64,000 nt of DNA, taken from an uncultured Chitinophaga sp. Its GTDB lineage: Bacteria > Bacteroidota > Bacteroidia > UKL13-3. The stretch is taken from the NCBI GenBank assembly GCA_964545895.1, contig CAZJHS010000002.1:28735-92734 (forward strand). The letters are read 5' to 3'. Position 1 is the stretch's first letter. Each line of letters starts with the position of its first letter. The notes beneath the pieces were generated by a model that was not told where the DNA came from, did no database searches, and worked only from the letters and a program-made list of their open reading frames with translations. Made by a program: the position numbers and the translations under genes. Positions 32,276-57,192 of this stretch are shown one piece after another.

Positions 32276-32644
32276 CTAAGGTTGCATTTTTTGTAGCAAT
32301 ATTTTTGAAATACTTGTTGCACGTTGTAATGCCAAGTTGGTGTTTTCGCCACTAAAATGTTCGCCTAATGTTTCTCTAAACAAGTGCATCCAGCGCTCAA
32401 AAGTATCGGTACTTAAATGATGTGCCTCGTTAACATGTTTATGGCTTTCCATAGGATTACCGGCATAATCGCCAGAATACAAAATGGTATTTTCCCAAAA
32501 ATCGTACATGGTAGGCATTAGCTTTGCCATATCATGGTGTACAAAGTAAGCACTAAGCATGTCGTCTTTCATTACCTTAGCATAAAAGGCATCAACTAAA
32601 ACTACAACATCTTCACGAGTTAATATATCTGGTAAAATATCCAT
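32276..32644 (-). CDS. Truncated hemoglobin (group III-like globin)
   Basis: 122 aa with the trHb-like pattern DAFYAKVMKDDMLSAYF...FWENTILYSGDYAGNPMESHKHV...FERWMHLFRETL. Confidence 0.7.
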   Translation of the reverse strand: MDILPDILTREDVVVLVDAFYAKVMKDDMLSAYFVHHDMAKLMPTMYDFWENTILYSGDYAGNPMESHKHVNEAHHLSTDTFERWMHLFRETLGEHFSGENTNLALQRATSISKILLQKMQP

Positions 32645-32680
32645 GGTAACATCAAGTTTATCACAAGTAAAACAATTGGT

Positions 32681-33586
32681 TTATTTACCCCAGTCTCCTT
32701 GCTCTTGTTCTGTCCACAAATTTGGGAAAAACTTTCGTTGTTGAAACTTAGGATGTAAATATTTTTTCCACTCCGAACCACCCGTAGCTTGTTGGTTCTC
32801 GTTTTTGCTATCTAAATAATGTTTAGCAGTGCTTAAATGAACCATCGGCCAAACAACATTATATAAGTGATCAAACTGACGCAACTTATCAACCAATTCG
32901 GCCGATGGGTTTGCAATTTCAGCAATACGATCGGCAATGGTTTTACCCTTAACCTTTTGGGCCAAGGCAATAAATTGTGCTAAGTACTTTTCTTCAAAAA
33001 GCTGAAGGGTAAGTGTTTTCTTTCCCGTTGTACGATTTAAGCCCGCATCTTTCCAATAAATATGATCAAACAATTCCTCCATACTTGGGTTGGCCGATAA
33101 ACGCTCTTTACCTGCTTGATTTACTAAATTTTGTATGGGTGTGCAATAAATTTCAATAAACCTAAACTGCGCACTTTGAAAACCACTTGCAGGTGCTAAT
33201 GTTGCTCTAAACGTATTATAATCATCGTAGTTCATACCATCTTTCATTATATCAAAAGAGTTGGTAAGCATTTGTGTGTACCTAATAATACGAGTAAACT
33301 TGTTCAGCAAAAAATCTTCGGTTAATTGATCTTTGGCTACCACTTGTTTAACCTCATGCAACATCAATTTTAAAAACAACTCGGTTACCTGATGATACAT
33401 GATAAAGATTTCTTCATCGGCAAAATTTGTGCGTGGCTTTTGTAAAGATAGCAGCATATCAACTTCTACATAATCCCAGTATGTAATAGGTTTGGCTTGC
33501 AATAAACCATTTAAATACGTTTCAGGATTTTCGCCCAAACTCGTGTACTTATTGTTAATTTCTTCAATAATATTTTTTTGATTCAT
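32681..33586 (-). CDS. Tryptophan 2,3-dioxygenase-family heme protein
   Basis: YWDYVEVDMLLSLQKP and IMYHQVTELFLKLMLHE (the distal-His HQxxEL block) match the bacterial TDO family. Confidence 0.7.
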   Translation of the reverse strand: MNQKNIIEEINNKYTSLGENPETYLNGLLQAKPITYWDYVEVDMLLSLQKPRTNFADEEIFIMYHQVTELFLKLMLHEVKQVVAKDQLTEDFLLNKFTRIIRYTQMLTNSFDIMKDGMNYDDYNTFRATLAPASGFQSAQFRFIEIYCTPIQNLVNQAGKERLSANPSMEELFDHIYWKDAGLNRTTGKKTLTLQLFEEKYLAQFIALAQKVKGKTIADRIAEIANPSAELVDKLRQFDHLYNVVWPMVHLSTAKHYLDSKNENQQATGGSEWKKYLHPKFQQRKFFPNLWTEQEQGDWGK

Positions 33587-39996: not shown

Positions 39997-41037
39997 TTAT
40001 GGTTGTAAAACAGCCACATCGGTAAGTGTGTTTAAAAATGCTATTAACGCTAATTTTTGCTCGTTGGTTAAATTAAGTTGATATGTTGGTGCTCGTTTAT
40101 TTAAAATAGGATCAATGGTGGCTGAGGCATGAATACCCGAATTATAAAACTCAACTACTTCTGCTAAATTAGCAAACCTTCCATCGTGCATATAAGGTGC
40201 AGTTAAAGCAATATTGCGTAAAGTGGGTGTGGCAAATTTTCCAATATCGGCCGAGCTATGCGTAATTAACCATCGACCAGCATCAAAGCCGGTAAAAGTT
40301 GAACTTATGCCGTTGTTATGAAAATCGTTATCACTAAACAAAGGAGCTTGGTGGCAATGAAAACAATCGCCAATTTCAGAGAAAAAAATATGTTGTCCTT
40401 CTTGCTCTTGCCCGGTAAACTCTGCCTCACCGCGCATCACTTTATCGTACTTGGCATTATTACTAATAATTGTGCGCATGTATTGTGTAATAGCGTAAGC
40501 CAGTTTGCGCTTTAAATCTGTAAACGATAATTGGTAAACATCTTTAATTAAAAATGCTTTATACAATCGTTGGCTGTAAAAGTTATTACCAGATAAAGAT
40601 GCATACAAAGCAGCACTATCTGTGTTAAAAAATTCGGGGCCAAAATCGCCCATGCACAAGGTGTCCAAAATTCGTTCGGAGCCTATCCAATTGTAATTGC
40701 GTTTAAATGCTAAATTAATATGTGGCGGAACACTAATTTTATATCCGTTGGCACCATAAAATAATGGCAACGAAAAAGATTTTTCGCGATTATGACATGA
40801 AGAGCAACTGCGGCCATTGGTAGATAAAACAGGATCGGTGTATAAAATTTTCCCAAGCTCAACTCCCTCCACCGTTAAAGGGTTTTCAGGAATCATTTTT
40901 GCCAATGGAAAACCTGCAGGAATATTTAAAAAATATGGCGTTGGTTTATACGTTTCTGCTACCGATGTATCTGCATCTTTACTACACGATAGAATCAACA
41001 ATATCCATACCCAATAAATCCATTTATTATTTTGCAT
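39997..41037 (-). CDS. Di-heme cytochrome c peroxidase / MauG-family protein (MbnH-like)
   Basis: Heme motifs CSSCH and CFHCH, and the hallmark PTLRNIALTAPYMHDGRF. I prefer the ATG at 41037 (MQNNKWIYWVWILLILSCSKD, signal plus lipobox) over the track start at 41148, which overlaps the upstream gene by 122 nt. Confidence 0.85.
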   Translation of the reverse strand: MQNNKWIYWVWILLILSCSKDADTSVAETYKPTPYFLNIPAGFPLAKMIPENPLTVEGVELGKILYTDPVLSTNGRSCSSCHNREKSFSLPLFYGANGYKISVPPHINLAFKRNYNWIGSERILDTLCMGDFGPEFFNTDSAALYASLSGNNFYSQRLYKAFLIKDVYQLSFTDLKRKLAYAITQYMRTIISNNAKYDKVMRGEAEFTGQEQEGQHIFFSEIGDCFHCHQAPLFSDNDFHNNGISSTFTGFDAGRWLITHSSADIGKFATPTLRNIALTAPYMHDGRFANLAEVVEFYNSGIHASATIDPILNKRAPTYQLNLTNEQKLALIAFLNTLTDVAVLQP

Positions 41038-41767
41038 AAAACACATCCTTTCCATTATTAGTAAGCAATAACATGGTACTGGTATCACCCATGGTATAAT
41101 TAGCATCAGTGTAAAAATTATATGTATAAGGATTCTGATACCACTCATTAATATTCATGGCAAGTTTTATTGTATCGGTGTTTAAGCTAGCTACTGTAAA
41201 ATCAGTGGCTATGCTTTGATGTTTAATTAAAAAATAATTTAACCCAACATGCATGGCATAACCTTGTATACCACTTGTTGGGGTTTGATATTGTCCTTCA
41301 ATTTTTAAAAAATGAAACCCACCTCCCATTACATCGGGCCATAACATGCTAATGTTTTCGTCTGTAGTTTCTAGTTGATTGTGCTTATTTAAATCAGGGC
41401 TTAAACCAATATCAAACTTTATTGCGGTATACATATCCTTTGGCACATTGGTAAGCCTAAGTATGTTGGGTTGATTACGGGCATCAACAAAAAAATAAGA
41501 GTTAAGATGAACAACTGTATTGTTAATTGTGGTGAGGCTTATATTAGAAATATAATAATTGAGTCGTGTAACGCTGTACTGATTTCCAGCAGCATTTTTA
41601 TAGCGTAGGGTATCAAACTGCAAGGCATCATCATCAACAAAATAGTTAATGCGCACCGGCAAATTAACACCTGTATTTTGAGGAGGCACTAAATTATCTT
41701 TATTGCAAGCCCATACAAAAAAGATGAATATAATGAGGTAGTTTTTAATTGAATACTGCATACCCAA
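41027..41767 (-). CDS. Lipoprotein, MbnP-like partner of the peroxidase (tentative)
   Basis: Probable ATG at 41761 (MQYSIKNYLIIFIFFVWACNKD, with lipobox). About 245 aa, directly upstream of and overlapping the MauG/CCP-family gene, as in mbnP-mbnH pairs. The block YSVTRLNYYISNISL resembles my memory of MbnP-family sequences. Confidence 0.45.
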   Translation of the reverse strand: MGMQYSIKNYLIIFIFFVWACNKDNLVPPQNTGVNLPVRINYFVDDDALQFDTLRYKNAAGNQYSVTRLNYYISNISLTTINNTVVHLNSYFFVDARNQPNILRLTNVPKDMYTAIKFDIGLSPDLNKHNQLETTDENISMLWPDVMGGGFHFLKIEGQYQTPTSGIQGYAMHVGLNYFLIKHQSIATDFTVASLNTDTIKLAMNINEWYQNPYTYNFYTDANYTMGDTSTMLLLTNNGKDVFYAK

Positions 41768-41793: not shown

Positions 41794-41809
41794 CTTGATT
41801 AGTATCAAG
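41794..41809. promoter_or_regulatory. Perfect FNR/CRP-type palindrome CTTGAT-TAGT-ATCAAG
   Basis: A 16-bp perfect inverted repeat containing the FNR consensus TTGAT-N4-ATCAA. It lies in the divergent intergenic region between the MbnP-like gene (ATG 41761) and the small plus-strand ORF (ATG 41849). Confidence 0.55.
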
Positions 41810-41848: not shown

Positions 41849-42043
41849 ATGTACAACCCACTTGGTATTATTTTACAAATTGGCCCACCACCACCCGATG
41901 GTTGGGGCGACCCCGACATTCCAAACACACCCATTGATAGCCATATTTGGATTTTGATTTTAGCCAGTATCATCTTGGCATTTTTAAAACTTTACTACAA
42001 AAAAAGCACCTATAAATAGGTGCTTTAAACTTAAACCACATTA
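41849..42043 (+). CDS. Small (64 aa) Pro-rich protein with a P-I-D + TM + basic C-terminal module; not in the supplied ORF track
   Basis: Codon-by-codon hand translation gives MYNPLGIILQIGPPPPDGWGDPDIPNTPIDSHIWILILASIILAFLKLYYKKAPINRCFKLKPH*. An in-frame TAA lies 8 codons upstream of the ATG. Confidence 0.45.
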
Positions 42044-42094: not shown

Positions 42095-42514
42095 TTATAA
42101 CGCTGTATTATCCCACTCGGCATAACACGTTGCAGTTTCGTATAACTTTAATCGTTTTACAAAAACACCTTTAGGCAGTTGGTTGCGTATTCTCGCTAAA
42201 ATTTCTAACAACAAGTATTCGGCTGTTGGCTCTTGCTTCATCCAAACTAATTTAGTGGTAAGGCTATGAGAGAGCTCGGTGTTTAATTCATTAATTTTTA
42301 AAAGCAATGCATGATCAAAATCGTTTAATACCTCTTGTTGCACTATGGATTTTAGCTTTTTAAAGTCCATAATCATTGCTGTTTCTTCTACAACTTTTCC
42401 AACAACTGTTACATGCAATTCGTAACTGTGGCCGTGTATATTTTTACATGCACCATCATAACTCGAAATGGCATGAGCAGCTTCAAACGTAAATACCTTA
42501 GTAACACTTAACAT
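42095..42514 (-). CDS. queD: 6-carboxy-5,6,7,8-tetrahydropterin synthase
   Basis: KVFTFEAAHAI...CKNIHGHSYELHVTV zinc/catalytic motifs, 139 aa. Confidence 0.85.
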   Translation of the reverse strand: MLSVTKVFTFEAAHAISSYDGACKNIHGHSYELHVTVVGKVVEETAMIMDFKKLKSIVQQEVLNDFDHALLLKINELNTELSHSLTTKLVWMKQEPTAEYLLLEILARIRNQLPKGVFVKRLKLYETATCYAEWDNTAL

Positions 42515-42527: not shown

Positions 42528-43883
42528 TTATGTAGCTATAGAATTAACTCCTGTTGATGATGATTGTGGTACTTTACAAGTTAATGTATGATACACCAAC
42601 ACAATAGCGGTTGTAGCCAAGGCTAATAAAAGTATTAAGCCTGATGCATTAAACACTATAAAATATGGAACCATTTTTTGCATAAGAGTATGATGCGAAA
42701 TAGTAGAAATTGAATTTTGCCAAATACCTTTTTGAATGCCAGCCACATTTAACGAAAGCCAAAACACAAGTAAACTACTTTGCATAATCCAAAAAGCGGT
42801 GTTGAGTGTTTTGGTTGGTTTTTGATAGCTTTTACATGGATTACTTAAAAACATAAAACAAGCAGCAAACAAAATCATGGTATTAATACCAATTGTAGTA
42901 CCCATGGCATGTGCAACGGTAACATGGGTTCCGTGCGTATATAAATTAAACGCAGGTATTGACATTAAAATGGCTTGTGCCATGTTTAAAAACACCCAAA
43001 AGTTAGAAGCCATTATAAAGCGATAAGGGTAATAATGAAAGTACTGTTTTGCCTCGGTAATACTTGCTTTCCAGGTGTAAATAATGCGCGCAAAAAATAT
43101 CCACTCGGTCATGCTTACTGCATAGCCAACATACCTAATATAAGCTTGTGTTGGAAGTGTATAAATGTGGTGGCCCCAATTAAACATCAGATTAAATAAT
43201 CCAAGAAAAAACATTGCAAAGGCCATTTTACTGGAAGCCATTTTGCTTTGTCCACTTATTCTATCCATTAAAAAAAATGCAGTGCCATATATTATTTGAT
43301 TCCATGCTCCAACCAAAGAGCCATTCACTTTCCACTGAATGGTCATATCGGTAATAAAATCTTTTCTAAAATAAGGGAACAGCCACAAGTAGTTTTCGGT
43401 AAACGTGAATAAGAAAAACACAATGCCTGTCATCCACATCCAAACGTATACCGGCCATGTTTTAAAATGCTTAGCCACCTTTATAAAGTTAGCCAACATA
43501 AGTAACCACGAAGCCGCAATAGGCAATGCCCAAATAGGATTAAACTCCCAATACTCGCGGCCACCAAAATCCTTTTTAAAATAACTACTAGCTACACCCA
43601 CTATAGCAATTAGCCAAAGTAAAAGCTGAGCTAGGGCCAATTTATTTGAAATACAATTAGGTTTTAGCACCGTAAGCGCACTTAACACACAACCGCTTGC
43701 AGCCAATAAAATCCAAAAAATTACAAACGACACATGCATGGGCCTTAACGCCACAAAGCCAAATGTGCTTTTTAAAAACGTAGGGAATACATAAACCTGT
43801 GCCGCTAATACGCCAAATAGTAATCCTATGAGCAGCGTAAATAAAGCTACTAGCAAAAATAATTTTCCAACTTGTGTTTTCAT
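42528..43883 (-). CDS. Heme-copper-oxidase-superfamily subunit I-like protein (NorB/CcoN-like) with atypical metal-ligand set
   Basis: 451 aa with about 12 TM helices. LRPMHVSFVIFW (helix II type), NWGHHIYTLP (helix VII HH) and THGTHVTVAHAMG (helix X region) are present. ATGA overlap with the upstream cytochrome c gene. Confidence 0.6.
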   Translation of the reverse strand: MKTQVGKLFLLVALFTLLIGLLFGVLAAQVYVFPTFLKSTFGFVALRPMHVSFVIFWILLAASGCVLSALTVLKPNCISNKLALAQLLLWLIAIVGVASSYFKKDFGGREYWEFNPIWALPIAASWLLMLANFIKVAKHFKTWPVYVWMWMTGIVFFLFTFTENYLWLFPYFRKDFITDMTIQWKVNGSLVGAWNQIIYGTAFFLMDRISGQSKMASSKMAFAMFFLGLFNLMFNWGHHIYTLPTQAYIRYVGYAVSMTEWIFFARIIYTWKASITEAKQYFHYYPYRFIMASNFWVFLNMAQAILMSIPAFNLYTHGTHVTVAHAMGTTIGINTMILFAACFMFLSNPCKSYQKPTKTLNTAFWIMQSSLLVFWLSLNVAGIQKGIWQNSISTISHHTLMQKMVPYFIVFNASGLILLLALATTAIVLVYHTLTCKVPQSSSTGVNSIAT

Positions 43884-44284
43884 TTTTGTTCAATCATTCC
43901 GTTAGGTAAAATGCTAAAGCTTTTATAGTCTGCTTGGCCACTTGCATCTGTTTGTTTAAAAAACTGCATTAAACTTTTTAGCTCAGTATTTGATAAACTA
44001 AATGCAGGCATGGATGCACTGCCTGAAACCAACATGGCACGAATTATGGTATCGCCTTTGGTGCTGTATACATTGGTTAAATCGGGCCCCAAATAGCCAC
44101 CCAAACCATACAATTGATGACAACTTTGACAATTATATTTTTGCCAAACCAAACGACCTTGCGCAGCCTCCGTTGCATCATTTTTCCCCAAATCAATACT
44201 ATAACTAGGCTTTAAATAAATACTAAAACTGTATACCAAAAACAGTATTACCAAAAGTGCATATATGTATATTGGTTTAAACAT
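43880..44284 (-). CDS. Membrane-anchored mono-heme c-type cytochrome (NorC-like)
   Basis: N-terminal TM anchor IYIYALLVILFLVYSFSIYL, heme motif CQSCH, and a distal Met candidate in SGSASMPAF. Confidence 0.75.
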   Translation of the reverse strand: MFKPIYIYALLVILFLVYSFSIYLKPSYSIDLGKNDATEAAQGRLVWQKYNCQSCHQLYGLGGYLGPDLTNVYSTKGDTIIRAMLVSGSASMPAFSLSNTELKSLMQFFKQTDASGQADYKSFSILPNGMIEQK

Positions 44285-44287: not shown

Positions 44288-45826
44288 TTAATACAATGAA
44301 ATAGGATTTTGATTTACCTGTTTATGCAGTGTATTGTTATTTACTTGCATGTCGGCCAAAATTAACAACGCTGTTTGTGCTAAGTTTCTCACTTCTAATA
44401 AATCAATACTTGTCATACCAGATAACAGCAAGTGCTCTACCTCTTGAATAACACTTTTACATCTTTCGGTTAAAAAACTTGCACGTAGAAAATCGGGTGC
44501 AGAAAACAACCTGGTGGTTTCCTTTTTAATATATTTTACTTGGGTTTGCACCCACTTTTGGTAATATGGAATTAATGCCACTTGCTTAAGCGATTTTAAT
44601 TCGAGTTTTAAATTATATGCGCCTACATAAGTTAATATATCATGTGCAATATGGTGTGCAAAAACCAAGGCTTCCAATAAGGAGTTTGAAGCTAATCTAT
44701 TCTTGCCATGTAAACCAGTACATGCAGTTTCGCCCACAGCATATAAATGCTGCAAAGTTGTTCTGCCATTTTTTGTTACTGAAACTCCGCCACAAGCATA
44801 ATGTGCCGAAGGCATAATAGGAATTAAATCGTGCGAAACATCAAATCCTAAACTTTGCAGTTTGGTTAATATAGCAGGAAATTTTTGTGCCAGTTGTACT
44901 GCATTTAAATGACGTAAATCTAAATATACGCATGCCAACTGATGTTGTTTTACATGATGATGTATGGCATTGCTTATTACATCACGCGTGGCTAATTCTC
45001 CGCGTACATCATAATCAAACAAAAACCTTTGGTGCAAATGATTAACCACATAAGCGCCATAACCACGCAATGCTTCAGATAATAAAAATGTGGTTTTTCC
45101 TTCGCCAGTTTCATCAAACAATGCAGTAGGATGAAATTGAATAAAACGCATATTGGCCAAATTTGCCCCAGCGCGCGATGCGATGGCAAAACCATCACCA
45201 GTAGCCACATCGGGGTTTGTGGTATGATTAAAAACTTGCCCACAACCACCTGTTGCAAGCACGGTATGATGTGCATGAAAAGGAACTACTAACCCTTGGT
45301 GTTGATCTAAATATTTTACTCCCACACAAGTTTCTCCCTCCATCCACAAATCAATTACCATGGTATGCTCTAGCAATTCAATATTGGGTAACAATTGTAC
45401 TTTATTCCATAAACAATGTTCAATTTCTAATCCTGTTTTATCAGCGTGATGCAATACCCTTGGTTTACTGTGGCCTCCTTCTAAGGCCATGTTTAAACTG
45501 CCATCTGCATTTGTATCAAAATTTACACCCCACTCCAATAACTCAGCCAATCGCTCAGGAGCTCCCTTCACTACCATTTCAACAACCGACTCATCACATA
45601 AACCACCACCTGCATTTAACGTATCCTGTATGTGTTCTTCATACGAATCGTGTAGCAAATTAGTTACACCAGCAATACCACCTTGCGCCATACGCGTACT
45701 GCCTTGCATGGCCTCCTTTTTGGTAAGTATACACACTTTTAGTTTGGGTTGATTAGTAGCCAATTTTATTGCTAATGATAACCCTGCAATACCAGAACCA
45801 ACAATTAAAACATCAGTATTTTTCAT
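44288..45826 (-). CDS. nadB: L-aspartate oxidase
   Basis: FAD motif DVLIVGSGIAGLS, RMAQGGIAG, HPTAL, and the C-terminal GETACTGLHGKNRLASNSLLEALVF. Confidence 0.9.
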   Translation of the reverse strand: MKNTDVLIVGSGIAGLSLAIKLATNQPKLKVCILTKKEAMQGSTRMAQGGIAGVTNLLHDSYEEHIQDTLNAGGGLCDESVVEMVVKGAPERLAELLEWGVNFDTNADGSLNMALEGGHSKPRVLHHADKTGLEIEHCLWNKVQLLPNIELLEHTMVIDLWMEGETCVGVKYLDQHQGLVVPFHAHHTVLATGGCGQVFNHTTNPDVATGDGFAIASRAGANLANMRFIQFHPTALFDETGEGKTTFLLSEALRGYGAYVVNHLHQRFLFDYDVRGELATRDVISNAIHHHVKQHQLACVYLDLRHLNAVQLAQKFPAILTKLQSLGFDVSHDLIPIMPSAHYACGGVSVTKNGRTTLQHLYAVGETACTGLHGKNRLASNSLLEALVFAHHIAHDILTYVGAYNLKLELKSLKQVALIPYYQKWVQTQVKYIKKETTRLFSAPDFLRASFLTERCKSVIQEVEHLLLSGMTSIDLLEVRNLAQTALLILADMQVNNNTLHKQVNQNPISLY

Positions 45827-45827
45827 G

Positions 45828-46766
45828 TTACATACTTAACTCAAACATGCGTTCAAGTGGTTTGGCAGCAGCTTTAATAAGCGAACTATCTAAGGTAATT
45901 TCTGGTGTTTCGTACAATAAGCAATCGCGCAATTTTTTTAAGGTATTTACACGCATAAAGGCGCATTCGCTGCAAGCACAAGTATTATCTTCTTTACTTG
46001 GTGCAGGTATCAAAACTTTATCTGGGGCTTCGGTGCTTAGTTTATTTAAAATACCCACCTCTGTAGCAATTATAAAAGTAGAAGCAGTACTGTGTTTAAT
46101 AAAATTAATCATACCCGATGTAGAACCAATGTAATGTGCTACACGTAAAATATGCTCTTCACTCTCGGGGTGTGCTACAATTAATGCATGCGGATGCCGT
46201 TTGTGTAAGGCCAATAACTTATCAAAAGAAAAAGCTTCATGTACCACACATGCACCATCCCATAACACCATGTCTCTTCCCGTTTTTTGTATTAAATATC
46301 TTCCTAAATTTTTATCGGGTGCAAAAATTATTGGTTGATGTTGGGAAATACTTGCAATCACTTTTTCGGCATTAGCCGATGTGCAAATAATATCGCACAA
46401 TGCCTTAACCTCGGCCGAGCAATTGATATAAGCCACTGTTACATGATCGGGATATTTAAGCTTAAATGCACTAAACGATTCGGCTGTACACGATTCGGCC
46501 AATGAGCAACCAGCCTCCAAATCGGGCAACAATACTTTTTTAGTAGGATTTAAAATTTTAGCCGTTTCGGCCATAAAATGCACACCTGCAAAAACAATAA
46601 TATCGGCAGTAGTTTCAGCCGCCTGTTTAGATAATGCCAAACTATCTCCTACAAAATCGGCTATGTTTTGTATACTATCTTCTTGATAATAGTGGGCCAG
46701 AATTACTGCGTTTTTTTGCTTACGCAAACTATTAATCTCGGCCACGTATTTGCCATCATTCTTCAT
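45828..46766 (-). CDS. nadA: Quinolinate synthase
   Basis: VILAHYYQ, FAGVHFMAETAKILNP, YINCSAEVKALCDIICTSANA, WDGACVVHE, and the C-terminal CACSECAFM cluster-ligand region. Confidence 0.95.
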   Translation of the reverse strand: MKNDGKYVAEINSLRKQKNAVILAHYYQEDSIQNIADFVGDSLALSKQAAETTADIIVFAGVHFMAETAKILNPTKKVLLPDLEAGCSLAESCTAESFSAFKLKYPDHVTVAYINCSAEVKALCDIICTSANAEKVIASISQHQPIIFAPDKNLGRYLIQKTGRDMVLWDGACVVHEAFSFDKLLALHKRHPHALIVAHPESEEHILRVAHYIGSTSGMINFIKHSTASTFIIATEVGILNKLSTEAPDKVLIPAPSKEDNTCACSECAFMRVNTLKKLRDCLLYETPEITLDSSLIKAAAKPLERMFELSM

Positions 46767-46770
46767 AAAT

Positions 46771-48585
46771 TTACACTACATGTAAGGGTTCTAAAGCATA
46801 GTCAATTGCTAATACTTCATCTTCTAATTTGTTTAACTCATTTTGCATACCATTAAAAAGCTCTGTAAACTCAAGCTCCATTTTAGTGCTTAAATCGCGG
46901 TAATAAGCTACACCTGCCAATAGGTTTTCTTTAAACTTATTAAGGTACGATGCTTTATGTACAGCCAACTGCGAAGCCTGCTCTTTGTGTCGCTCTTGTA
47001 AATACTTTACATACAATTTAAGTTCGTTAATAAACACATTAGGACGTGGTACATTGTTTAAAATATTTAACCTTCCGTAAATATGATCAACCATTTGTTG
47101 TAATGTAAACACACCCGAAAAGTACGCCAAGTTAGGACCCGGGCAAATGGTTACTGCACCAAAATCGTGAGCAGGTTTAATATCGTTTACCAACAAAGCC
47201 GGCACACTTAAACCCTCGCAAATACAATCTTTAGCTTGCAACATTTCTATGCGTAAATCTTGCTCCTCTTGTGTTTTACTGCTTGCTTTAATTTGTTTAA
47301 GTTTATGGTATTGGTATTGGGTTGATGCAGTGCAAATAGGAAGTTTGGTAAACTCATTATCAAACTGTAAAAACTTTTTAAGACAAGGGCTACCTGCTTT
47401 ACCCGATTGAATACGGGTTTTGCGTAAATGCTCCGAACTGCTTTTTCTGAAATTATTAAACGGTACACCAAGAGGTGATGCGTTACTTAAAAAATAATCT
47501 TCGGGTGATGCAGTTGATAAATCATTTAAGGTATTATTATCTACATTAGTTGCCTCTGGCACTAGTAAAAAAGGGCTACCCCAACCAATGCTATCTAATT
47601 GATAATAGCGTATCAAAAAATCAGACTCTTGCGCAGTACCAACACCACCTTGGGCCGTAACTTTTGACATTGGTTTTTGCTTAAATCCATTTTTGCCTGC
47701 GGCTAATAAACTTGTTTGGCATAACTCGTATAACGTGTTGTATAACTCGCTTCGCTTTTGTTTAAATTCTTCTAAAATTGGGCCTAATAAAAAGCCATCC
47801 GTAGCAAAAGCATGTCCGCCACAATTCAACCCCGATTCTATTCTAAATTCCGAAACCCAAATTCCTTTTTTAGCTAAAAATTTTCCTTGAATTAATGCCG
47901 ATCTATAATCACTTACTTTTAATACAATTTGTTTAACCAACTCGCCATGTGCATTTGGGTAAAACGCAGTGAAACTCTCGCAATAGCCGTAAACTCTTGG
48001 GTTAAAACCAGCCGAAAACACAACCGATGAATTTAATTCGCTTTGGGCAAAGCCCCTTAATGCAGTTAATGCATCCGAAAACTCATCAAAAACTGGATTG
48101 CCATCTTGATCAAACCTTGGCTTATCCACCTTGGTCATAATATTTACTTCAATAGCACCAGTAATCCAATTTTGTTTAAGCTTATCGGCTATTTCAAGTT
48201 GCTCTTGCGGATTATAGTTTTTTAAATTTTTGTACAGAATTTTTTGCGCATTATTATCAGGTAATAGCTCAAAATACTTGGCTACTTCTGGTGCGGTAAT
48301 AGGTTGTTGTTTAAGTTGCATTACCTGCTTTTTTACCAAGTAATTAAGCATGTTTAGGTATGCAGTAATGCGTTTGGCTCTATAATCGGGTTGATGTGAG
48401 TTAATAGGCTCGTAAGTAAAATTCCACACACCAGCATAGTGCTTTCTTAGTTGTTCAAGCAAATCATCTTCCATAATGGATATGGCAGAATTAATACCAT
48501 ACTTGGCTACTTTAATGGGCGTATCAACTGTAAAACCAATACCCATTACAGGTATATGAAACAGATGTTTATCAGAAACTATCAT
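46771..48585 (-). CDS. Conserved-looking 604-aa protein of unknown function (possible TIM-barrel flavoenzyme-like core)
   Basis: A long uninterrupted ORF tightly packed with nadA. IESGLNCGGHAF and AQGGVGTAQE weakly resemble NMO/enoyl-reductase-type FMN barrels. No confident family assignment. Confidence 0.5.
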   Translation of the reverse strand: MIVSDKHLFHIPVMGIGFTVDTPIKVAKYGINSAISIMEDDLLEQLRKHYAGVWNFTYEPINSHQPDYRAKRITAYLNMLNYLVKKQVMQLKQQPITAPEVAKYFELLPDNNAQKILYKNLKNYNPQEQLEIADKLKQNWITGAIEVNIMTKVDKPRFDQDGNPVFDEFSDALTALRGFAQSELNSSVVFSAGFNPRVYGYCESFTAFYPNAHGELVKQIVLKVSDYRSALIQGKFLAKKGIWVSEFRIESGLNCGGHAFATDGFLLGPILEEFKQKRSELYNTLYELCQTSLLAAGKNGFKQKPMSKVTAQGGVGTAQESDFLIRYYQLDSIGWGSPFLLVPEATNVDNNTLNDLSTASPEDYFLSNASPLGVPFNNFRKSSSEHLRKTRIQSGKAGSPCLKKFLQFDNEFTKLPICTASTQYQYHKLKQIKASSKTQEEQDLRIEMLQAKDCICEGLSVPALLVNDIKPAHDFGAVTICPGPNLAYFSGVFTLQQMVDHIYGRLNILNNVPRPNVFINELKLYVKYLQERHKEQASQLAVHKASYLNKFKENLLAGVAYYRDLSTKMELEFTELFNGMQNELNKLEDEVLAIDYALEPLHVV

Positions 48586-48596
48586 GTAAAAAGGGG

Positions 48597-49487
48597 TTAA
48601 TTAGTATGATTGAGGTAATTGGTTAAAGCTGCTTTCCAATGTGGCAAACTAGCCATGCCTCTGTTTTTAATGCAGGTATTTTCAAGTACCGAGTATTTAG
48701 GACGAGGAGTTTTAGCCGGAAAAAAATCGCTCGATACTTTATTTACTTCTACTTGTGTATTGGTTAATTCAAAAATGGTTTGCGCAAACTCATGCCAACT
48801 GCACGAACCTTCGGAAGTAAGATGTGTTATACCTGTTAATTCTTGCTTTAATAAATTGGGCAGTATTTGAGCAATATCAAAAGTTGCTGTAGGCGAAACA
48901 AACTCATCACACACAACATTTAAACTAGGTTGCTCAGCACCCAACTTACGCATAAGTTGTACAAAGTTTAAACCGTTTTTAGCTCGGCATGGGTGATGGC
49001 CATACAGTGCCGAAACACGCAGAATTAAAGCCGCATGATTCTCGCCTAGTACGCTTAACTCGCCTTGATATTTTGTTTTACCATATACGTTTAATGGATT
49101 AGGCGTATCCAACTCAACATAAGGTTTTGATTGTGCTCCATCAAACACATAATCGGTGCTAAAATGCACCAACTTAATTTCTAAATATCTACACATGCGT
49201 GCTAAAAAAGCAGGCGCAGTGGTGTTAATTAGTTTAGCTAAATCAGGAAATTCTTCGCACTTATCTACCTGGTGATAAGCAGCAGTATTAATAACAACTT
49301 GTGGTTTATTACTGCTCAAATAATTTTTAACAGCCACTAAGTTAGTAATGTCTAATTCGGTATGCGTAGGTGCCAATACCTCTATATCTTGCTGTGTAAA
49401 CACAGCAGAAATATCACTTCCTAATTGTCCTTGTGCACCTAGTATTAACGCTTTCTTTATCATAGTTATAGGTTTAAATAAGCACAA
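48597..49487 (-). CDS. rfbD: dTDP-4-dehydrorhamnose reductase
   Basis: ALILGAQGQLGSD, NTAAYHQVDKCE, HFSTDYVFDG and VYGKTKYQGE. The probable start is MIKKALIL at 49463. Confidence 0.85.
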   Translation of the reverse strand: MCLFKPITMIKKALILGAQGQLGSDISAVFTQQDIEVLAPTHTELDITNLVAVKNYLSSNKPQVVINTAAYHQVDKCEEFPDLAKLINTTAPAFLARMCRYLEIKLVHFSTDYVFDGAQSKPYVELDTPNPLNVYGKTKYQGELSVLGENHAALILRVSALYGHHPCRAKNGLNFVQLMRKLGAEQPSLNVVCDEFVSPTATFDIAQILPNLLKQELTGITHLTSEGSCSWHEFAQTIFELTNTQVEVNKVSSDFFPAKTPRPKYSVLENTCIKNRGMASLPHWKAALTNYLNHTN

Positions 49488-50460
49488 CTTGTTGCGCCAT
49501 TTTCTTTTTAAACATGGCTATATTGTAGAATCTTTCATCATCGAAATTGCTGTACTTATCGACAGCACGATATAAATCAAGCATAATAGCATGAGCATCT
49601 TGTTGTGGTTTATAGTTTAATAATTGTTGAGCTTTTTCAGTACTTACTTTATAGTTTCGGTAATCTTGTACTTGTTTATTGATAACAGAAACCTGCATGT
49701 TATAATTTTCTGCTACAAATAATTTTACTACTTCGGCTAATTCGCCAATAGTGGCATTAAACGAAGAGAGGTTAATAACATGGCCGTTTTTTAATGGATG
49801 TTGCAAAGCCAATAAATAACCTTGGCACAAATCATCAAGCCCCAAAATTGGTCGCCATATTTTAGGATTACTCAATGTTATTTCGCCACAACTTAATGCG
49901 TTTTTAAACATCGTATTCATAGCTAAATCCAACCGCATACGAGGCGAATAGCCACTTACCGTACCTTGTCTAAAACAAATTACATTAAAGTTTTCATCGG
50001 CTAAAGCTAACACTGCTTGCTCGCCTTGTAGTTTTGAAACACCATACGGATAATTACTTACTGCTATATCCTCTTCGGTAAATGTGGTGTTGTGTGTGTA
50101 GCCATAAACCGAGCATGAGCTTGCAAAAATAAATTGCTTTACACCGGCCTCTTTTGCTAAAAAAGCCAAGTATGCAGGCATGCCTGTGTTGTAGATAAAA
50201 TTATCTTTAGGCGAGAACTCCGCCATAGGATCGTTTGATAATCCGGCTAAAAAAATAACCGCATCAAACTGTTTCAAATTGCTTGGATTTAAATCAAAAA
50301 TATCCTTCTCTATTACCGCAATATCATCAGCCAAATAATTACCAAACCACATGGCATCAACCACGGTTATATCTATTTGTTGATTACTTAAAAACGGGGC
50401 TAAAGTAGTGCCTATATAGCCAGCACCACCAAGTATGAGCACTTTTTGTTTAGTATTCAT
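49474..50460 (-). CDS. NAD-dependent epimerase/dehydratase (extended SDR)
   Basis: Rossmann motif VLILGGAGYIGT and catalytic YGVSK (YxxxK). Confidence 0.8.
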   Translation of the reverse strand: MNTKQKVLILGGAGYIGTTLAPFLSNQQIDITVVDAMWFGNYLADDIAVIEKDIFDLNPSNLKQFDAVIFLAGLSNDPMAEFSPKDNFIYNTGMPAYLAFLAKEAGVKQFIFASSCSVYGYTHNTTFTEEDIAVSNYPYGVSKLQGEQAVLALADENFNVICFRQGTVSGYSPRMRLDLAMNTMFKNALSCGEITLSNPKIWRPILGLDDLCQGYLLALQHPLKNGHVINLSSFNATIGELAEVVKLFVAENYNMQVSVINKQVQDYRNYKVSTEKAQQLLNYKPQQDAHAIMLDLYRAVDKYSNFDDERFYNIAMFKKKMAQQVVLI

Positions 50461-51022
50461 AGGTAAAATTATTAGCGTTATCAGTAGCTAACCATTGGTT
50501 AAGCGTAAGTAGTCCTCTATCTTTTTCTGACAAGATGGGTTGTTTTATAGGCCACTTAATACCAATTTCGGGGTCGTTGTAACTAATTCCCGATTCGGCA
50601 TTTTTATTATAAATACCCGTGCACTTGTATTGTATTTCGGCTACATCAGATAGCACACAAAAACCACGCGCAAAACCTGCAGGAGCCCATACCATTTTAT
50701 TGTTTTCGGTATTTACTATTTCGCCATACCATTGGCCCAATGTGGGCGAATTTTTTCTGATATCAACAGCCACTAAAAATGCTTCGCCTTGGGTAACACG
50801 CATAAGTTTACCCATGGCTGGTTGCCATTGAAAATGCAATCCACGCAATACATTTTTTGATGAACGCGAGTGATTATCTTGCACAAAATTCATGGGCAAG
50901 CCCAAGTCGGTAAAAATATCTTGACGATATACTTCCATAAAAAATCCGCGTTCGTCTTTAAAAATTTCAGGCTGAAGCACCATCAGTCCATTCAAGGCTT
51001 GATGTATAACATTTATTTTCAT
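50450..51022 (-). CDS. rfbC: dTDP-4-dehydrorhamnose 3,5-epimerase
   Basis: FKDERGFFMEVY, RGLHFQ, and the cupin core of RmlC. Confidence 0.9.
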   Translation of the reverse strand: MKINVIHQALNGLMVLQPEIFKDERGFFMEVYRQDIFTDLGLPMNFVQDNHSRSSKNVLRGLHFQWQPAMGKLMRVTQGEAFLVAVDIRKNSPTLGQWYGEIVNTENNKMVWAPAGFARGFCVLSDVAEIQYKCTGIYNKNAESGISYNDPEIGIKWPIKQPILSEKDRGLLTLNQWLATDNANNFTYEY

Positions 51023-52085
51023 GTTGCGTAACTTTTATAAGTTGAGAAAACGTGTTTATTTTTTTAATAAAAAACTGATATACAATACTGCCTCTGTACA
51101 TAAAAGGCAATACCTCACTATCGGGTAACTTGCGCTTGCGTTGCACTTTGCTGCGCTTAGACATAATTAAATTGCCATGCCATATAAGCCAAAGATGCGC
51201 AGTGGCTATTGCCCTTATCATAGTAAAATTTAAAGTAAGTAGTCCTTGTAAGGCTGCTACAACATCTAGTAAAATATGCACTGGTACGTACTTAATAACA
51301 TTTTTAAGCTCGTAGTTTTTAAGCATAATGTAAAGTGCGTTGCGATGGTTCCAGTAGGTTTTAGCAAAGCTGTGTTGTGTAATGGTTCCACCACCAATAT
51401 GATGGATAACAGCATTGGGTTGAACATAAAGTTTAAAACCAGCCATGCGCAAACGCCAACACAAATCAATTTCATCCATGTGGTGTACAATGGTTACATC
51501 AAGCAAACCACTAACTGATAAGGCCGACTTACGCAAAAACATGGCCGCACCGCTAGTCCAAAAAACCTGCGCCACATTATTATATTGGCCATTATCTTTT
51601 TCAAGATGTGTAAATACACGACCACGTAAAAACGGATAACCAAACACATCATACATACCACCCGATGCACCCGCATATTCAAACTCGTTAGGCTTTTGAT
51701 ACGATAAAATTTTGGGTTGAATAGCTGCAATTTGCTGATCAGATTCGGCTAAATTTACCATCCCTTCAATCCAATTTGGCGCTACAGTTACATCGTTATT
51801 TAGGCAAATAATGTACTCGCCCGGACAACGCCTAAATGCCAAATTATACGCAGCACAATAGCCATTGTTAAATCTATTCTGTATAATTTTTACTTCGGGA
51901 TATTTTTGGATAACATAGTTTACATCATCATCTGTTGATGCATTATCTAGCAAGTAAACCTGCTTTTTTTTATAGGTTGATTGCAATACAGAAGTAAGGC
52001 ACTCATCTAAAAAACGTTTACCGTTATGATTTAAAATTACTATATCAACCTCGGGTAGCATATGCGTAATGTTTTGAGCAAACAA
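50967..52085 (-). CDS. Glycosyltransferase family 2 (rhamnosyltransferase-like)
   Basis: DIVILNHNGKRFLDECL, LLDNASTDD, and the LNNDVTV acceptor-side motif. Its 3' end overlaps the rfbC start by 56 nt. Confidence 0.8.
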   Translation of the reverse strand: MFAQNITHMLPEVDIVILNHNGKRFLDECLTSVLQSTYKKKQVYLLDNASTDDDVNYVIQKYPEVKIIQNRFNNGYCAAYNLAFRRCPGEYIICLNNDVTVAPNWIEGMVNLAESDQQIAAIQPKILSYQKPNEFEYAGASGGMYDVFGYPFLRGRVFTHLEKDNGQYNNVAQVFWTSGAAMFLRKSALSVSGLLDVTIVHHMDEIDLCWRLRMAGFKLYVQPNAVIHHIGGGTITQHSFAKTYWNHRNALYIMLKNYELKNVIKYVPVHILLDVVAALQGLLTLNFTMIRAIATAHLWLIWHGNLIMSKRSKVQRKRKLPDSEVLPFMYRGSIVYQFFIKKINTFSQLIKVTQHENKCYTSSLEWTDGASA

Positions 52086-52111: not shown

Positions 52112-52127
52112 ATTGACGGTGGTCAAT
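52112..52127. promoter_or_regulatory. Perfect FNR/CRP-type palindrome ATTGAC-GGTG-GTCAAT
   Basis: A 16-bp perfect inverted repeat with a TTGA-N6-TCAA core. It lies between the FNR-like gene stop (52164) and the GT2 start (52085), centred about 35 nt upstream of that ATG. Confidence 0.55.
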
Positions 52128-52163: not shown

Positions 52164-52898
52164 TTACTCTTCTAACTCGGCAAGAACAACCAGTTTGGCG
52201 TGATTAATAATGCTGATTTGCTTTTTGTTTAACGCAATAATGTGGTCGTCTTCCCACTCGCGCAATACACGCACCACCGTTTCGGTAACCATACCCGATA
52301 TACTGGCAATATCTTCGCGTGTTAAAATAATGTTTAAGTAATGATCGGCTGTGGTACCAAATGATTTTTCGAGCAATAACAAAGTTTCGGCCAAACGTGC
52401 CCGCGAACTTTTTTGAATAAAATTAACCGATTTACTTTCGGCTAAACTTAAGTCTTGCGCAAACTTCGAAATAATCTCCATCGTAAATTTTACGTTGGTG
52501 TTTATTAAATTAAAAATGCGCTCTTTGGGTATAAAACAAACTACCGATTCTTCTAAGGCTACACCAGTTGCAATATACTTGCCATCGCCCAACAAACCTC
52601 GGTAACCCAACAACTCGCCCGCACCTGCAATCCGTAAAATTTGCATGCTGCCATCGGCTGTTGTTTTGTACAACTTAACTTTACCCTGATGCACGCAATG
52701 CATGCCCTTAGCCGTATCGCCCTCGCCAAAAATTACTTGATTTTTCTTTACACGATGGGTAAGTTTATGCTCATTTAACTGCTCCAATTCGCTTTGCTTT
52801 AAAGAACAAAATGAAGACAAGGCCAAATTTTGGCATGTAGTACAATCAATATGTTTTACCGGATTTTTCACCGTAAGGTTTTTTGGTGTTACAAACAT
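52164..52898 (-). CDS. FNR-like Crp/Fnr-family regulator with N-terminal Cys cluster
   Basis: Cys19-x2-Cys22-x8-Cys31 plus Cys121 parallel E. coli FNR Cys20/23/29/122. A cNMP-like beta-roll is present. HTH REDIASISGMVTETVVRVLREW with the E--xR recognition pattern. Confidence 0.8.
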   Translation of the reverse strand: MFVTPKNLTVKNPVKHIDCTTCQNLALSSFCSLKQSELEQLNEHKLTHRVKKNQVIFGEGDTAKGMHCVHQGKVKLYKTTADGSMQILRIAGAGELLGYRGLLGDGKYIATGVALEESVVCFIPKERIFNLINTNVKFTMEIISKFAQDLSLAESKSVNFIQKSSRARLAETLLLLEKSFGTTADHYLNIILTREDIASISGMVTETVVRVLREWEDDHIIALNKKQISIINHAKLVVLAELEE

Positions 52899-52989: not shown

Positions 52990-54201
52990 TTGAACTTCAA
53001 AATGCATTTAGTACAGGCAAATCATAACATAAGTTTATATCAAACATGGCGTTACAAAAGCTTATCCTTCGTAAAAAAGGTAGGTTTAGTATTTGGGTTG
53101 ATATTGCTTTTTTGCCATGCAAGTGCACAACGCATCATCGATAGTTTACCAAACCCTGTTGATGTTCAATCATCGTCACAACCCTACTTTTACCAAGGCT
53201 TAACCTATGGCAGCCAACGCAACTTTAACCCCATAACCGTGCTGCTCAACCGCGGGTTCGAAATGTTGCGCATTACTGAACAAAGCGCACGATACAGCCC
53301 ATTTGTACCCGGTTATAAATTTAAAAACATTGTTAAAAATTTAGCCAACCCAATACAGGGAGTGCAACAATATGGTACAAAGGAGTTTTTTTTAGAGCAA
53401 GTAATTCCCTTTGGCGACCCACGCAGACCTTATTGGTTTCCTAATTATGCCTTGCACATGCTTGAAGGTGGCGTAACCTACACCGGATTAAAAGAATGGT
53501 TTGAGTTACACGATGCTCAATATCCCAAAACATACTCAGCAGCAGTTGTTATTTCGGCAGCCTTAATTAACGAGTCGGTTGAGGAAAAAGTAACCAACGG
53601 AAACTTTAGGCTAAATGTAGATGCCGTTGCCGATTTTTGGATTTTTGATGTAGGAGGTATTTTACTGTTTCAATCAAAAAAGGTAAATAAATTTATGAGC
53701 CAAACGTTGCACATGCGCGATTGGTCAAAACAACCTGCTGTGTATTTGCCTACCTTAAACTTAGCCAACTGCGGCCAGTTTCTTTCCTTAAAATGGAATT
53801 TACCCAAATTAAAGAATGTATCGTTTTTTAGTTTAGTGGGCCTCGGTGGTATGGGCGGTTTATCTTACCAATTTAAAAACAACACCAGTTTATCCATGGG
53901 TATAGGCCACGGACCAAGGCGCAAAGAGAGCAACATTTTAGGGTTGCCTATTGATGTGCATTTAGTGCCCATGCTGGGTATTTACTACGATAAAAACAAC
54001 TCCTTATTAGCCTCTTTAGAGTTAAGCAATTCTAAAAACGATTTATACCACAACTATTTTGCTGAGCTAAATTTGTATCCTGGTTTTATTAAAGTAAAAA
54101 AACTCGATCCAACAGTTTGGCTAACCATAGCCCGCGATGGCGATTTTTTAATTGGCCTAGGTTGTAAATACACCTACGGTGTTGGTTTGGGATTGAGGTA
54201 G
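52990..54201 (+). CDS. Hypothetical secreted/outer-membrane protein
   Basis: An internal signal-like segment KKVGLVFGLILLFCHASAQ about 30 aa after the track start. No motif recognised, and the start codon is uncertain. Confidence 0.55.
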   Translation: MNFKMHLVQANHNISLYQTWRYKSLSFVKKVGLVFGLILLFCHASAQRIIDSLPNPVDVQSSSQPYFYQGLTYGSQRNFNPITVLLNRGFEMLRITEQSARYSPFVPGYKFKNIVKNLANPIQGVQQYGTKEFFLEQVIPFGDPRRPYWFPNYALHMLEGGVTYTGLKEWFELHDAQYPKTYSAAVVISAALINESVEEKVTNGNFRLNVDAVADFWIFDVGGILLFQSKKVNKFMSQTLHMRDWSKQPAVYLPTLNLANCGQFLSLKWNLPKLKNVSFFSLVGLGGMGGLSYQFKNNTSLSMGIGHGPRRKESNILGLPIDVHLVPMLGIYYDKNNSLLASLELSNSKNDLYHNYFAELNLYPGFIKVKKLDPTVWLTIARDGDFLIGLGCKYTYGVGLGLR

Positions 54202-54221
54202 GGATTAATGAAATTCAATCT

Positions 54222-56262: not shown

Positions 56263-56291
56263 AGTTAAATTAAAGTTACAACGAAAATTAT

Positions 56292-57190: not shown

Positions 57191-57192
57191 GG

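Follow-up and report, generated by a model that had tools for sequence, protein, structure and literature searches.

Within the window analysed here, a 64,000-nucleotide stretch of DNA from an uncultured Chitinophaga sp. (assembly GCA_964545895.1, contig CAZJHS010000002.1, positions 28,735 to 92,734), two overlapping genes encode a small membrane-anchored cytochrome c and a homologue of subunit I of the haem-copper oxidases (HCOs). The larger protein is a member of a large, distinct HCO family that lies on the branch shared by the C-family (cbb3) oxidases and cNOR and that occurs mostly in Bacteroidota. As read from the alignments, its ligand set, with Gly188 and Lys185 in helix VI, a His/Met low-spin haem and neither Glu211 nor Glu215 of cNOR, sets the family apart from cNOR, cbb3, nNOR, gNOR and the putative nitric oxide (NO) dismutases (NOD). 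The best explanation, which we hold to be probable though well short of certain, is a NorC/NorB-type complex with a remodelled distal site that would act as an anaerobically induced, cytochrome c-fed terminal or detoxifying reductase, with NO as the leading substrate. Taken as a claim of its own, the assignment of NO is more tentative; it is the leading candidate, at somewhat less than an even chance. The first-pass annotation of this DNA had described the protein as a candidate divergent nitric oxide reductase (NOR) or an uncharacterised HCO relative, and what stands of that description is a real divergent NOR-like HCO with non-canonical ligands and a NorC-like partner.

The HCO subunit I homologue (NorB/CcoN-like; 42528..43883, minus strand, as are all residue coordinates given below) is a protein of 451 amino acids with 12 transmembrane (TM) helices. 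It scored 110 bits against the PF00115 (COX1) profile (cut-off 34.8) across residues 5-412, so that its 12-TM core belongs to the HCO superfamily by this profile, and Foldseek comparisons and a family profile place it there as well. An AlphaFold2 model built from a 58-sequence family alignment (pLDDT 93, pTM 0.92) consists of 12 long helices, the sixth of which spans residues 176-210. The open reading frames, the motif positions and the model bear out the architecture that had been described from the letters alone, with LRPMH at residues 46-50, NWGHHIY at 235-241 and the helix X motif YTHGTHVTVAHAMG at 315-328. The partner (134 amino acids; 43880..44284, minus strand), identified as a membrane-anchored, mono-haem, NorC-like cytochrome c by its matches in the PDB and by its position, carries a hydrophobic anchor at its N terminus, a single CQSCH motif and, as its distal methionine, Met92. 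Its best PDB matches are NorC of Pseudomonas aeruginosa (3o0r_C, E = 3e-10) and the chain from Roseobacter denitrificans (4xyd_B, E = 5e-7), and the alignment with NorC spans the anchor, the haem motif, a G-x-G-x-Y-x-x-P-[ED]-L segment and the methionine of M-P-x-F. In the haem c attachment motif C52-Q-S-C55-H56 (44117..44131), all 84 partner sequences share C52, C55 and H56; Met92 (44009..44011), the presumed distal haem c ligand, is also invariant and lies in an SMPAF segment that aligns with RRAMPQF in the methionine region of NorC. The cytochrome stop codon overlaps the HCO start codon as ATGA (...AAA TGA / ATG AAA..., read directly in the sequence). The anchored CQSCH cytochrome, the NorC-NorB gene order and the overlap are all as first reported.

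The active-site and haem-ligand columns were mapped in three ways, by pairwise phmmer against PDB chains, by a family profile against PDB chains, and by a joint MAFFT alignment of 55 diverse main-family sequences, 14 sequences of a sister group (described below), cbb3 CcoN (9g6b) and two cNOR NorB proteins. The P. aeruginosa NorB numbering obtained from the joint alignment matches the published ligand numbers. Of the six canonical HCO histidines, four are present (His50, His238, His239 and His325), and the other two columns are filled by Gly188 and Met327. His50 in helix II (43734..43736), equivalent to NorB His60 and the first ligand of the low-spin haem b, is invariant in the 55 main-family and 14 sister-group sequences. 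His238 and His239 at the end of helix VII (43167..43172), equivalent to NorB His258 and His259, are the two retained B-site ligands and are invariant in all groups. In helix X, His325-Ala-Met327 (42903..42911) aligns ungapped to H347-G-H349 of P. aeruginosa NorB and to H-V-H of cbb3: His325, in 55/55 main-family sequences, is the proximal ligand of the high-spin haem b3 (NorB His347), and Met327, in 54/55, replaces the second ligand of the low-spin haem (NorB His349). Both residues are present in 14/14 sister-group sequences.

A further departure lies in helix VI, whose signature D179-MTIQW-K185-VN-G188-SLVGAW-N195 (43299..43349) lacks histidine; K185, G188 and N195 are each present in all 55 main-family sequences. 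That the sixth helix has no histidine, and that the helix X H-x-H pair reads H-A-M, had both been noticed by eye, and both observations hold: the helix contains zero histidines whichever register is used, and profile alignment recovered neither a helix VI histidine nor an H-x-H, in a protein that PF00115 scores clearly as an HCO. The identity of the replacing residue depends on the register. Pairwise phmmer put NorB His207, the canonical helix VI ligand of CuB or FeB, on Asn187, while the profile and the joint MAFFT alignment put it on Gly188. The second register is preferred because the profile and joint alignments are anchored by a shared D-x-x-V-Q-W and run ungapped against cbb3. A His-to-Asn reading is therefore one column off: Gly188 is invariant in the main family, and a NOD-like His-to-Asn exchange as the key substitution was rejected because Asn187 is variable (Y, N, C, F, A, Q, L, T and others).

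Three residues before the histidine column, Lys185 is kept without exception by the 55 diverse sequences of the main family and by 121 close relatives, and it aligns to a tryptophan in both cbb3 and cNOR (NorB Trp204). The FeB ligand NorB Glu211 has no counterpart, owing to a one-residue deletion that is consistent across the family, and NorB Glu215 is replaced by Asn195, which is invariant in the main family. The cross-link tyrosine column of cbb3 is occupied by Leu232 here and by Leu, Ser or Thr in the family as a whole. The three acidic residues that cNOR has on the periplasmic side (Glu135, Asp198 and Glu280) are conserved as Glu110, Asp179 and Glu260. Glu110, in the motif G108-R-E110-Y111 (43551..43562), corresponds both to NorB Glu135 and to the glutamate of the cbb3 GKEY motif, at the Ca2+/haem-propionate site of the C/NOR branch, and is kept in 53/55 main-family and 14/14 sister-group sequences. 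Asp179, on the periplasmic side, is found in 47/55 main-family sequences. Glu260 in helix VIII (43104..43106) is present in 55/55 main-family sequences, with Ala or Gly in the sister group and Leu in cbb3.

The family is large and its pocket is conserved over considerable sequence distance, well past anything that chance would give. A word-indexed search returned 2957 proteins at E <= 1e-5; the best 120 of these are 60-69% identical to the query, and every one with a named source comes from a Bacteroidota metagenome-assembled genome (MAG). A scan with one genome per GTDB species found relatives in at least 434 genomes. The best 80 of these 434 loci, to which all locus counts below refer, are nearly all labelled Bacteroidota (Chitinophagales, Saprospiraceae, Sphingobacteriaceae, Flavobacteriales and Cytophagales), with none from Solitalea among them. 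A HMMER search over 1.84 billion cluster representatives returned 400 representatives with identity down to about 26%, and in this wider set His50, Trp184, His238, His239, Tyr241, His317, His325 and Met327 are near-invariant. The possibility of a degenerate or pseudo-enzyme was rejected because the pocket residues stay invariant at identities to the query as low as about 25-30%, the range reached by the 55 diverse main-family sequences.

About a quarter of the fetched HCO-like sequences (77/284) form a sister group whose helices VI, VII and X read Q-W-H-G-x-D, F-G-H-H-H-Y and H-A-M, respectively, and which lacks the helix VIII glutamate. In this group, position 185 is His in 13/14 sequences and position 188 is Asp in 14/14, which marks position 185 as functional. 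With about 100 clusters the sister group is rare; its MAGs carry the labels Saprospirales, Opitutales (Verrucomicrobiota), Oceanipulchritudo and Parvularculaceae. A small cytochrome c gene precedes one inspected member (L086:4617-6354), whose other neighbours are a weakly NMO-like gene and a radical SAM gene; P0226 and P0240 are further examples of the group. Outside Bacteroidota, in high-GC sequences, the main-family HCO domain is fused at its C terminus to one to three CxxCH c-haem domains (P0147, P0148, P0165 of about 800 amino acids, P0174 and P0198; loci L087 and L088), with a faint FixO-like match. P0148 is the sole fusion whose locus was inspected, and there a separate 124-amino-acid NorC-like cytochrome c gene still precedes the fusion gene. 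The fusions to c-haem domains point to electron input through cytochrome c.

Placement within the superfamily was assessed by sequence and by fold. The family profile matched cNOR chains of the PDB with 101 and 82 bits, cbb3 chains with 63-73 and qNOR with 61, and it matched no A- or B-family chain at E <= 0.01. In Foldseek the closest folds were those of CcoN and NorB (TM-scores 0.83-0.87), ahead of qNOR (about 0.7-0.8) and of ba3 and aa3 (0.6-0.74); ba3 reached about 0.73, compared with 0.86 for NorB and CcoN. Homologues are named “cbb3-type cytochrome c oxidase subunit I” by NCBI and “nitric oxide reductase subunit B” by JGI, and both labels fail on the features that define the two enzymes. 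Several features are shared with cNOR (3O0R from P. aeruginosa, 4XYD from R. denitrificans). There too, the gene for a small anchored mono-haem cytochrome c is followed by the gene for a 12-TM subunit; cNOR gives the best PDB sequence match for both subunits, with fold TM-scores of 0.83-0.86; equivalents of His60, Glu135, Asp198, His258, His259, Glu280, His339 and His347 are kept; and there is no cross-link tyrosine. A NorC-type subunit is present, but the complete FeB site of three histidines and Glu211 (with Glu215) is absent, as is the bis-His low-spin haem. His207 is replaced by Gly, Glu211 is deleted, Glu215 is replaced by Asn and His349 by Met, a Lys stands at the position of Trp204, overall identity is about 19%, and the genomic context is not nirS/nirK-norCBQD.

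The likeness to cbb3 CcoN (3MK7, 9G6B, 8SMR) consists of a fold TM-score of up to 0.87, the helix VI D-x-x-V-Q-W, the G-[KR]-E-Y motif and the input of electrons by cytochrome c. FNR-type regulation, which is typical of cbb3 operons, adds a further parallel, as the operon of the Chitinophaga pair is headed by an FNR-type box. In contrast to CcoN, the protein lacks the helix VI CuB histidine and the helix VII cross-link tyrosine, H-V-H is replaced by H-A-M, and no CcoO or CcoP gene was found among the neighbours in the window or in the 80 loci. Canonical cNOR and canonical cbb3 are excluded by the absent FeB ligands and the absent cross-link tyrosine. A divergent, cbb3-like enzyme is a separate proposition: an FNR-induced, high-affinity O2 reductase or scavenger, acting as terminal oxidase for adjacent dehydrogenases such as proline dehydrogenase and L-aspartate oxidase. 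The NCBI name of the homologues, the equally good fold matches to CcoN and NorB, the FixO/CcoP-like c-haem domains of the fusion proteins, the FNR boxes and the dehydrogenases and amino-acid catabolic enzymes among the operon partners are all consistent with this proposal. However, the TIGR00780 (ccoN) score is 40.9 bits against a cut-off of 583.15, and the His-Tyr cross-link cannot form, with Gly188 in the histidine column and Leu, Ser or Thr in the tyrosine column. In addition, CcoO/CcoP genes are not adjacent in Bacteroidota, the partner is NorC-like, and the equivalent of Glu280, specific to cNOR, is conserved. Murali et al., in their main text, take an absent tyrosine as excluding O2 reduction (PMC11214002). 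We consider O2 reduction improbable, the least likely of the alternatives weighed here.

Other HCO families share single features with this one. The His/Met low-spin haem (here His50 and Met327) recalls nNOR, for which the main text of Murali et al. describes a low-spin haem of this type with an estimated rise in potential of about 150 mV. The same text relates nNOR to the B family and sNOR, and gives it a CuA-type second subunit, a full three-His-plus-Glu site and a conserved cytoplasmic proton channel (PMC11214002). Assignment to nNOR was rejected, since profile and fold both point to the C/cNOR branch and a cytochrome c takes the place of the cupredoxin partner; the active site here is also incomplete. 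For gNOR, the main text describes a B-family origin, one active-site His replaced by Asp, and a cupredoxin subunit without CuA (PMC11214002). Neither the Gly in the histidine column nor the branch agrees with this, and Asp188 occurs only in the sister group, which itself lies on the C/NOR branch with a cytochrome c partner. Comparison with the proposed eNOR, sNOR, gNOR and nNOR groups had been suggested at the outset; none of them fits, given the C-family/cNOR relationship and the cytochrome c partner.

The NOD proteins are single polypeptides of 750-800 amino acids. Together with gNOR they are the only described HCO families with a replaced B-site histidine (Asn in NOD, Asp in gNOR), whereas in the present family the helix VI histidine is replaced by Gly with a Lys at i-3. 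In the putative NO dismutases, one FeB His is changed to Asn and the catalytic Glu to Gln, and the electron-input site is lost from a qNOR-derived protein (PMC3413370). The Chitinophaga protein differs from NOD in its length of 451 amino acids, its retained electron-input cytochrome and its intact HH pair. The NOD precedent on the same branch (PMC3413370) speaks for a broader alternative, in which the distal pocket is metal-free or re-purposed for another substrate, be it NO dismutation, the reduction of nitrite, hydroxylamine or peroxide, or an electron sink for the amino-acid and NAD metabolism encoded in the same operons. Two canonical B-site ligands remain, and the conserved association with tryptophanase-like lyases, proline dehydrogenase, NadAB and QueD has no parallel in nor or cco operons. 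Set against these points, the electron-input module is strictly kept and even expanded in the fusions, unlike in NOD, which favours a reductase over a dismutase; the neighbours indicate no specific alternative substrate; and the metabolic neighbours vary by locus, are absent in Amniculibacterium and may reflect co-regulation only. We regard a substrate of this kind as quite unlikely, ranking it only just above O2.

In the window, the pair is part of a minus-strand operon with the order GT2, RmlC-like, epimerase, RmlD-like, a 604-amino-acid protein of unknown function, NadA, NadB, cytochrome c, HCO and QueD. The upstream genes, GT2 to NadB (44288..52085, minus strand), are separated by gaps of 1-13 bp or overlap, and the QueD/PTPS-family gene (42095..42514, minus strand; PF01242, TIGR03367) comes last, 13 bp after the HCO gene. 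An intrinsic-terminator-like hairpin with a T-run (42003..42026, minus strand; 10-bp stem, AAAGCACCTATTTATAGGTGCTTT then TTTTGTAG) closes the operon. At its head, in intergenic DNA, lies the FNR-type palindrome TTGACGGTGGTCAA (52113..52126), an exact TTGAYNNNNRTCAA site. Exactly two such palindromes occur in the 64 kb, compared with 0.27 expected, and 3 of 100 shuffles reach two. The second FNR-type box, TTGATTAGTATCAA (41795-41808), heads the MbnP/MbnH-nos unit, 28 bp upstream of MbnP. In related loci the box is 19-fold denser in intergenic than in coding DNA, and it is found 35-60 bp upstream of the head of the homologous operon in four of them (L003, L004, L005 and L042), and also upstream of MbnP. 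Beyond the operon head lies a gene for an Fnr-like Crp-family regulator (52164..52898, minus strand; PF00027, PF13545) with an N-terminal C-x2-C-x7-C; its best NCBIfam match is Fnr (PRK11161), at 88.8 bits, below the cut-off.

The adjacent unit encodes MbnP, MbnH, a cytochrome c, a Sec-type clade II NosZ (TIGR04246, 928 bits), a NosL-domain protein, NosD, NosF and NosY. The nosZ cluster is 3 kb from the cytochrome c-HCO pair and forms a separate unit; co-transcription was rejected on the grounds of the terminator-like hairpin after QueD and the MbnP-nos unit's own FNR box. The pair and the nos unit are probably members of the same regulon on different transcripts, judging by the boxes. The first-pass annotation had spoken of a window full of NO/N2O genes. 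That is too strong: the window does hold a clade II nos cluster, along with copper-supply and Fnr/Crp genes, but its proteins include no nir gene and no other nor gene in 64 kb, nos belongs to another transcription unit than the pair, nosZ lies within 10 kb in only 8/80 loci, and nir is not a recurrent neighbour.

Several further features of the window stand beside the nos cluster. MbnP and MbnH, a copper-binding protein and a di-haem MauG-like peroxidase (39997-41767, minus strand), head the clade II nos unit, and the box-MbnP arrangement recurs in at least six related loci, which suggests an oxygen-regulated copper supply for NosZ. Two genes directly downstream of nosY on the same strand (32276-33586, minus strand), one for a bacterial globin and one for a protein like tryptophan 2,3-dioxygenase (104 bits, short of the equivalog cut-off), are unusual additions to a nos cluster. 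A second Crp-family regulator gene (24468-29708, plus strand, for the whole set) is followed directly by the gene for a 410-amino-acid multi-pass membrane protein without a known family, which recurs in 16/80 loci, and then by a 127-amino-acid open reading frame, a YtkA-like protein and a TonB-dependent receptor. The YtkA-TonB set is also found near the HCO pair in other genomes (L083), and the whole set may be a metal-uptake or NO-response module. At the far end of the window (54001-64000), GC content dips to 0.31 at 54-56 kb over a 572-amino-acid open reading frame without a family, and is 0.43-0.44, with strongly negative AT skew, over a 2247-amino-acid open reading frame (57193-63936); elsewhere in the window it is about 0.36.

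All genes neighbouring the pair in the 80 loci were clustered without bias, with Pfam labels added. The cytochrome c partner is directly upstream of the HCO gene in 78/80 loci. Metabolic enzymes are the next most frequent: a tryptophanase-like beta-eliminating lyase in 55/80, usually directly upstream on the same strand, proline dehydrogenase directly downstream in 38/80, NadB in 32/80, NadA in 31/80, a QueD homologue in 25/80 and an ADP-forming acyl-CoA synthetase in 15/80. Regulators are represented by Rrf2 (33/80) and Crp/Fnr (15/80), and ScdA/hemerythrin/DUF2249 (RIC-type) genes occur in 27/80, a fasciclin gene in 28/80, MbnH in 17/80, MbnP in 16/80 and NrdD/NrdG in 11/80. Genes of the nos cluster are found in 8-15 of the 80 loci, and recurrent nir neighbours in none. 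These surroundings point to low-oxygen or NO-stress physiology, not to a classical denitrification operon. In the cultured Amniculibacterium (CP060698.1), whose 2.8-Mb genome is complete, the pair is an isolated unit surrounded by housekeeping genes (L093:9628-11371) and has the full main-family signature; together with the 78/80 loci that carry the partner, this makes the two-gene module the invariant unit.

Two candidate associates were rejected. Rrf2 as the regulator of the pair did not hold up: in L083, the one locus inspected in detail, the Rrf2 gene heads nrdDG and not the HCO operon, and its recurrence is taken as evidence on the neighbourhood only. The 604-amino-acid protein (46771-48585, minus strand in the window), which is encoded on the same strand as the HCO in 43/80 loci, was considered as an obligatory partner or electron donor and set aside, as it stands alone in Runella and Emticicia isolates and its fold likeness is only weak. 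This protein has no Pfam or NCBIfam match and more than 8000 homologues, all source names among the best 120 being “hypothetical” (including those from the Runella and Emticicia isolates). Its AlphaFold2 model (pLDDT 74) weakly resembles FMN TIM-barrel proteins of the FabK/PfaD/FabX/nitronate-monooxygenase type (TM-score about 0.3), and it has many invariant Cys/Gly motifs, for example NCGGHAF, CxCEGL and CPGPN. In 9/80 loci, genes for ScdA/hemerythrin, DUF2249 and DUF1858 proteins adjoin genes for membrane proteins of about 430 amino acids with a weak COX1 score of 35.5 bits (L043:2974-4260, L083:274-1566), which may be another HCO-like family of NO-stress clusters, either truncated or divergent.

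The proximity of the nos cluster bears on another proposal. Murali et al. (2024, PNAS) described, in their main text, an HCO family termed “N2O red” that is close to cNOR, lacks the active-site tyrosine and has an unprecedented active site (PMC11214002). They linked it to a member of the Bacteroidetes, Flexibacter (Solitalea) canadensis, found it in 293 GTDB genomes, and tentatively proposed that it reduces nitrous oxide (N2O), which would explain a sulfide- and acetylene-insensitive, membrane-bound activity of F. canadensis (PMC11214002). The present family is likewise a distinct clade near cNOR on the C-family branch without an active-site tyrosine. Every descriptor in that text fits, and the sizes are 293 genomes then and at least 434 species genomes here; the comparison is one of text descriptions only, as the main text gives no residue signature (PMC11214002). 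One statement in it, that the active-site histidine is fully conserved in all families except gNOR, would not hold for the present family (PMC11214002). Identity of the two families is therefore probable but unproven.

A NosZ-independent, membrane-bound N2O reductase, as tentatively proposed for “N2O red”, gains from each of these matched descriptors (proximity to cNOR, no tyrosine, an unprecedented site, Bacteroidetes) and from the distance of only 3 kb between the pair and the nos cluster, with FNR-type boxes at both units. Against it stand the unconfirmed identity with “N2O red” (whose description in the main text comes without a signature) and the broken rule of a conserved active-site histidine outside gNOR (PMC11214002). 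Moreover, a complete clade II NosZ system is already present in this genome, nosZ is within 10 kb in only a tenth of the loci (8/80), the Amniculibacterium pair lies among housekeeping genes, and no HCO has been shown to reduce N2O. On balance, N2O reduction is unlikely, although we rate it slightly above the other alternatives to NO.

NO remains the most economical guess for a substrate, given the homology to NorCB, the FNR/RIC/Rrf2-type neighbourhoods and the fact that several HCO active sites reduce NO; in the main text of Murali et al., several different HCO active sites support this reaction (PMC11214002). Under the NorC/NorB-type explanation, expression would take place under oxygen limitation from the operon headed by the FNR box. 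A periplasmic donor would reduce the haem c of the anchored cytochrome (His56/Met92), from which electrons would pass to a low-spin haem b held by His50 and Met327 instead of two histidines, with an expected higher potential. From there they would reach the high-spin haem b3 on His325, which would face the remodelled distal B site. That site would keep His238 and His239, with Gly at the position of the third histidine and without equivalents of Glu211 and Glu215. Lys185, one helical turn earlier and towards the periplasmic end of helix VI, may reach into the vacated space as a third metal ligand or as a cationic proton donor. Position 185 is best explained as a relocated third ligand or proton-donating group, a shift loosely akin to that of the cross-link tyrosine, which is known to have migrated in cbb3 oxidases. 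Conservation of Glu110, Asp179 and Glu260, but not of the tyrosine and K-channel residues of cbb3, suggests a cNOR-like proton supply from the periplasm, and the enzyme is probably non-pumping. The strictly conserved cytochrome and the c-haem fusions indicate that electrons enter from the periplasm, which argues for a reductase and not a dismutase.

Several points weigh against this explanation. The residues essential to cNOR (the FeB ligands His207 and Glu211, and Glu215) are all gone, so the cNOR mechanism cannot apply as such. The commonest operon partners, as counted above (lyase 55/80, proline dehydrogenase 38/80, NadA/NadB 31-32/80), are cytoplasmic metabolic enzymes and not nir, nor or nos products. 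Lys185, at a position that is Trp in cbb3 and cNOR, might instead serve the haem-propionate region. Control by FNR fits cbb3-type microaerobic O2 reduction equally well, and the role of the family as an NO reductase is drawn from homology and gene context. A bolder idea, which we consider rather unlikely, is that the family represents a new catalytic type. The helix VI ligand would have “migrated” one turn to the Lys, giving either a B site of two His and one Lys or a metal-free cationic pocket next to haem b3. Fed via a high-potential His/Met haem b, this site would perform a reaction of no characterised HCO, in particular, in Bacteroidota, a reduction of N2O to N2 that does not depend on NosZ and is insensitive to both acetylene and sulfide.

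The three CuB/FeB histidines have been treated as near-universal in HCOs, and the known exceptions, gNOR and NOD, are rare. Here, in thousands of sequences and at least 434 species genomes, the helix VI histidine is gone and an invariant Lys stands one turn away. Most of the carriers inspected are Bacteroidota that possess clade II nosZ, organisms regarded as sinks for N2O in the environment. If NO reduction is the true function, these organisms would be hidden N2O producers or NO detoxifiers. If N2O reduction is, the family would be a second sink for N2O, independent of NosZ, and would account for a membrane-bound N2O reductase, insensitive to acetylene, that was reported 30 years ago. Either way, gene-based inventories of denitrification misclassify this gene. 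The isolated two-gene unit of Amniculibacterium (CP060698.1), in a cultured host with a complete genome, offers a practical start for genetics and biochemistry.

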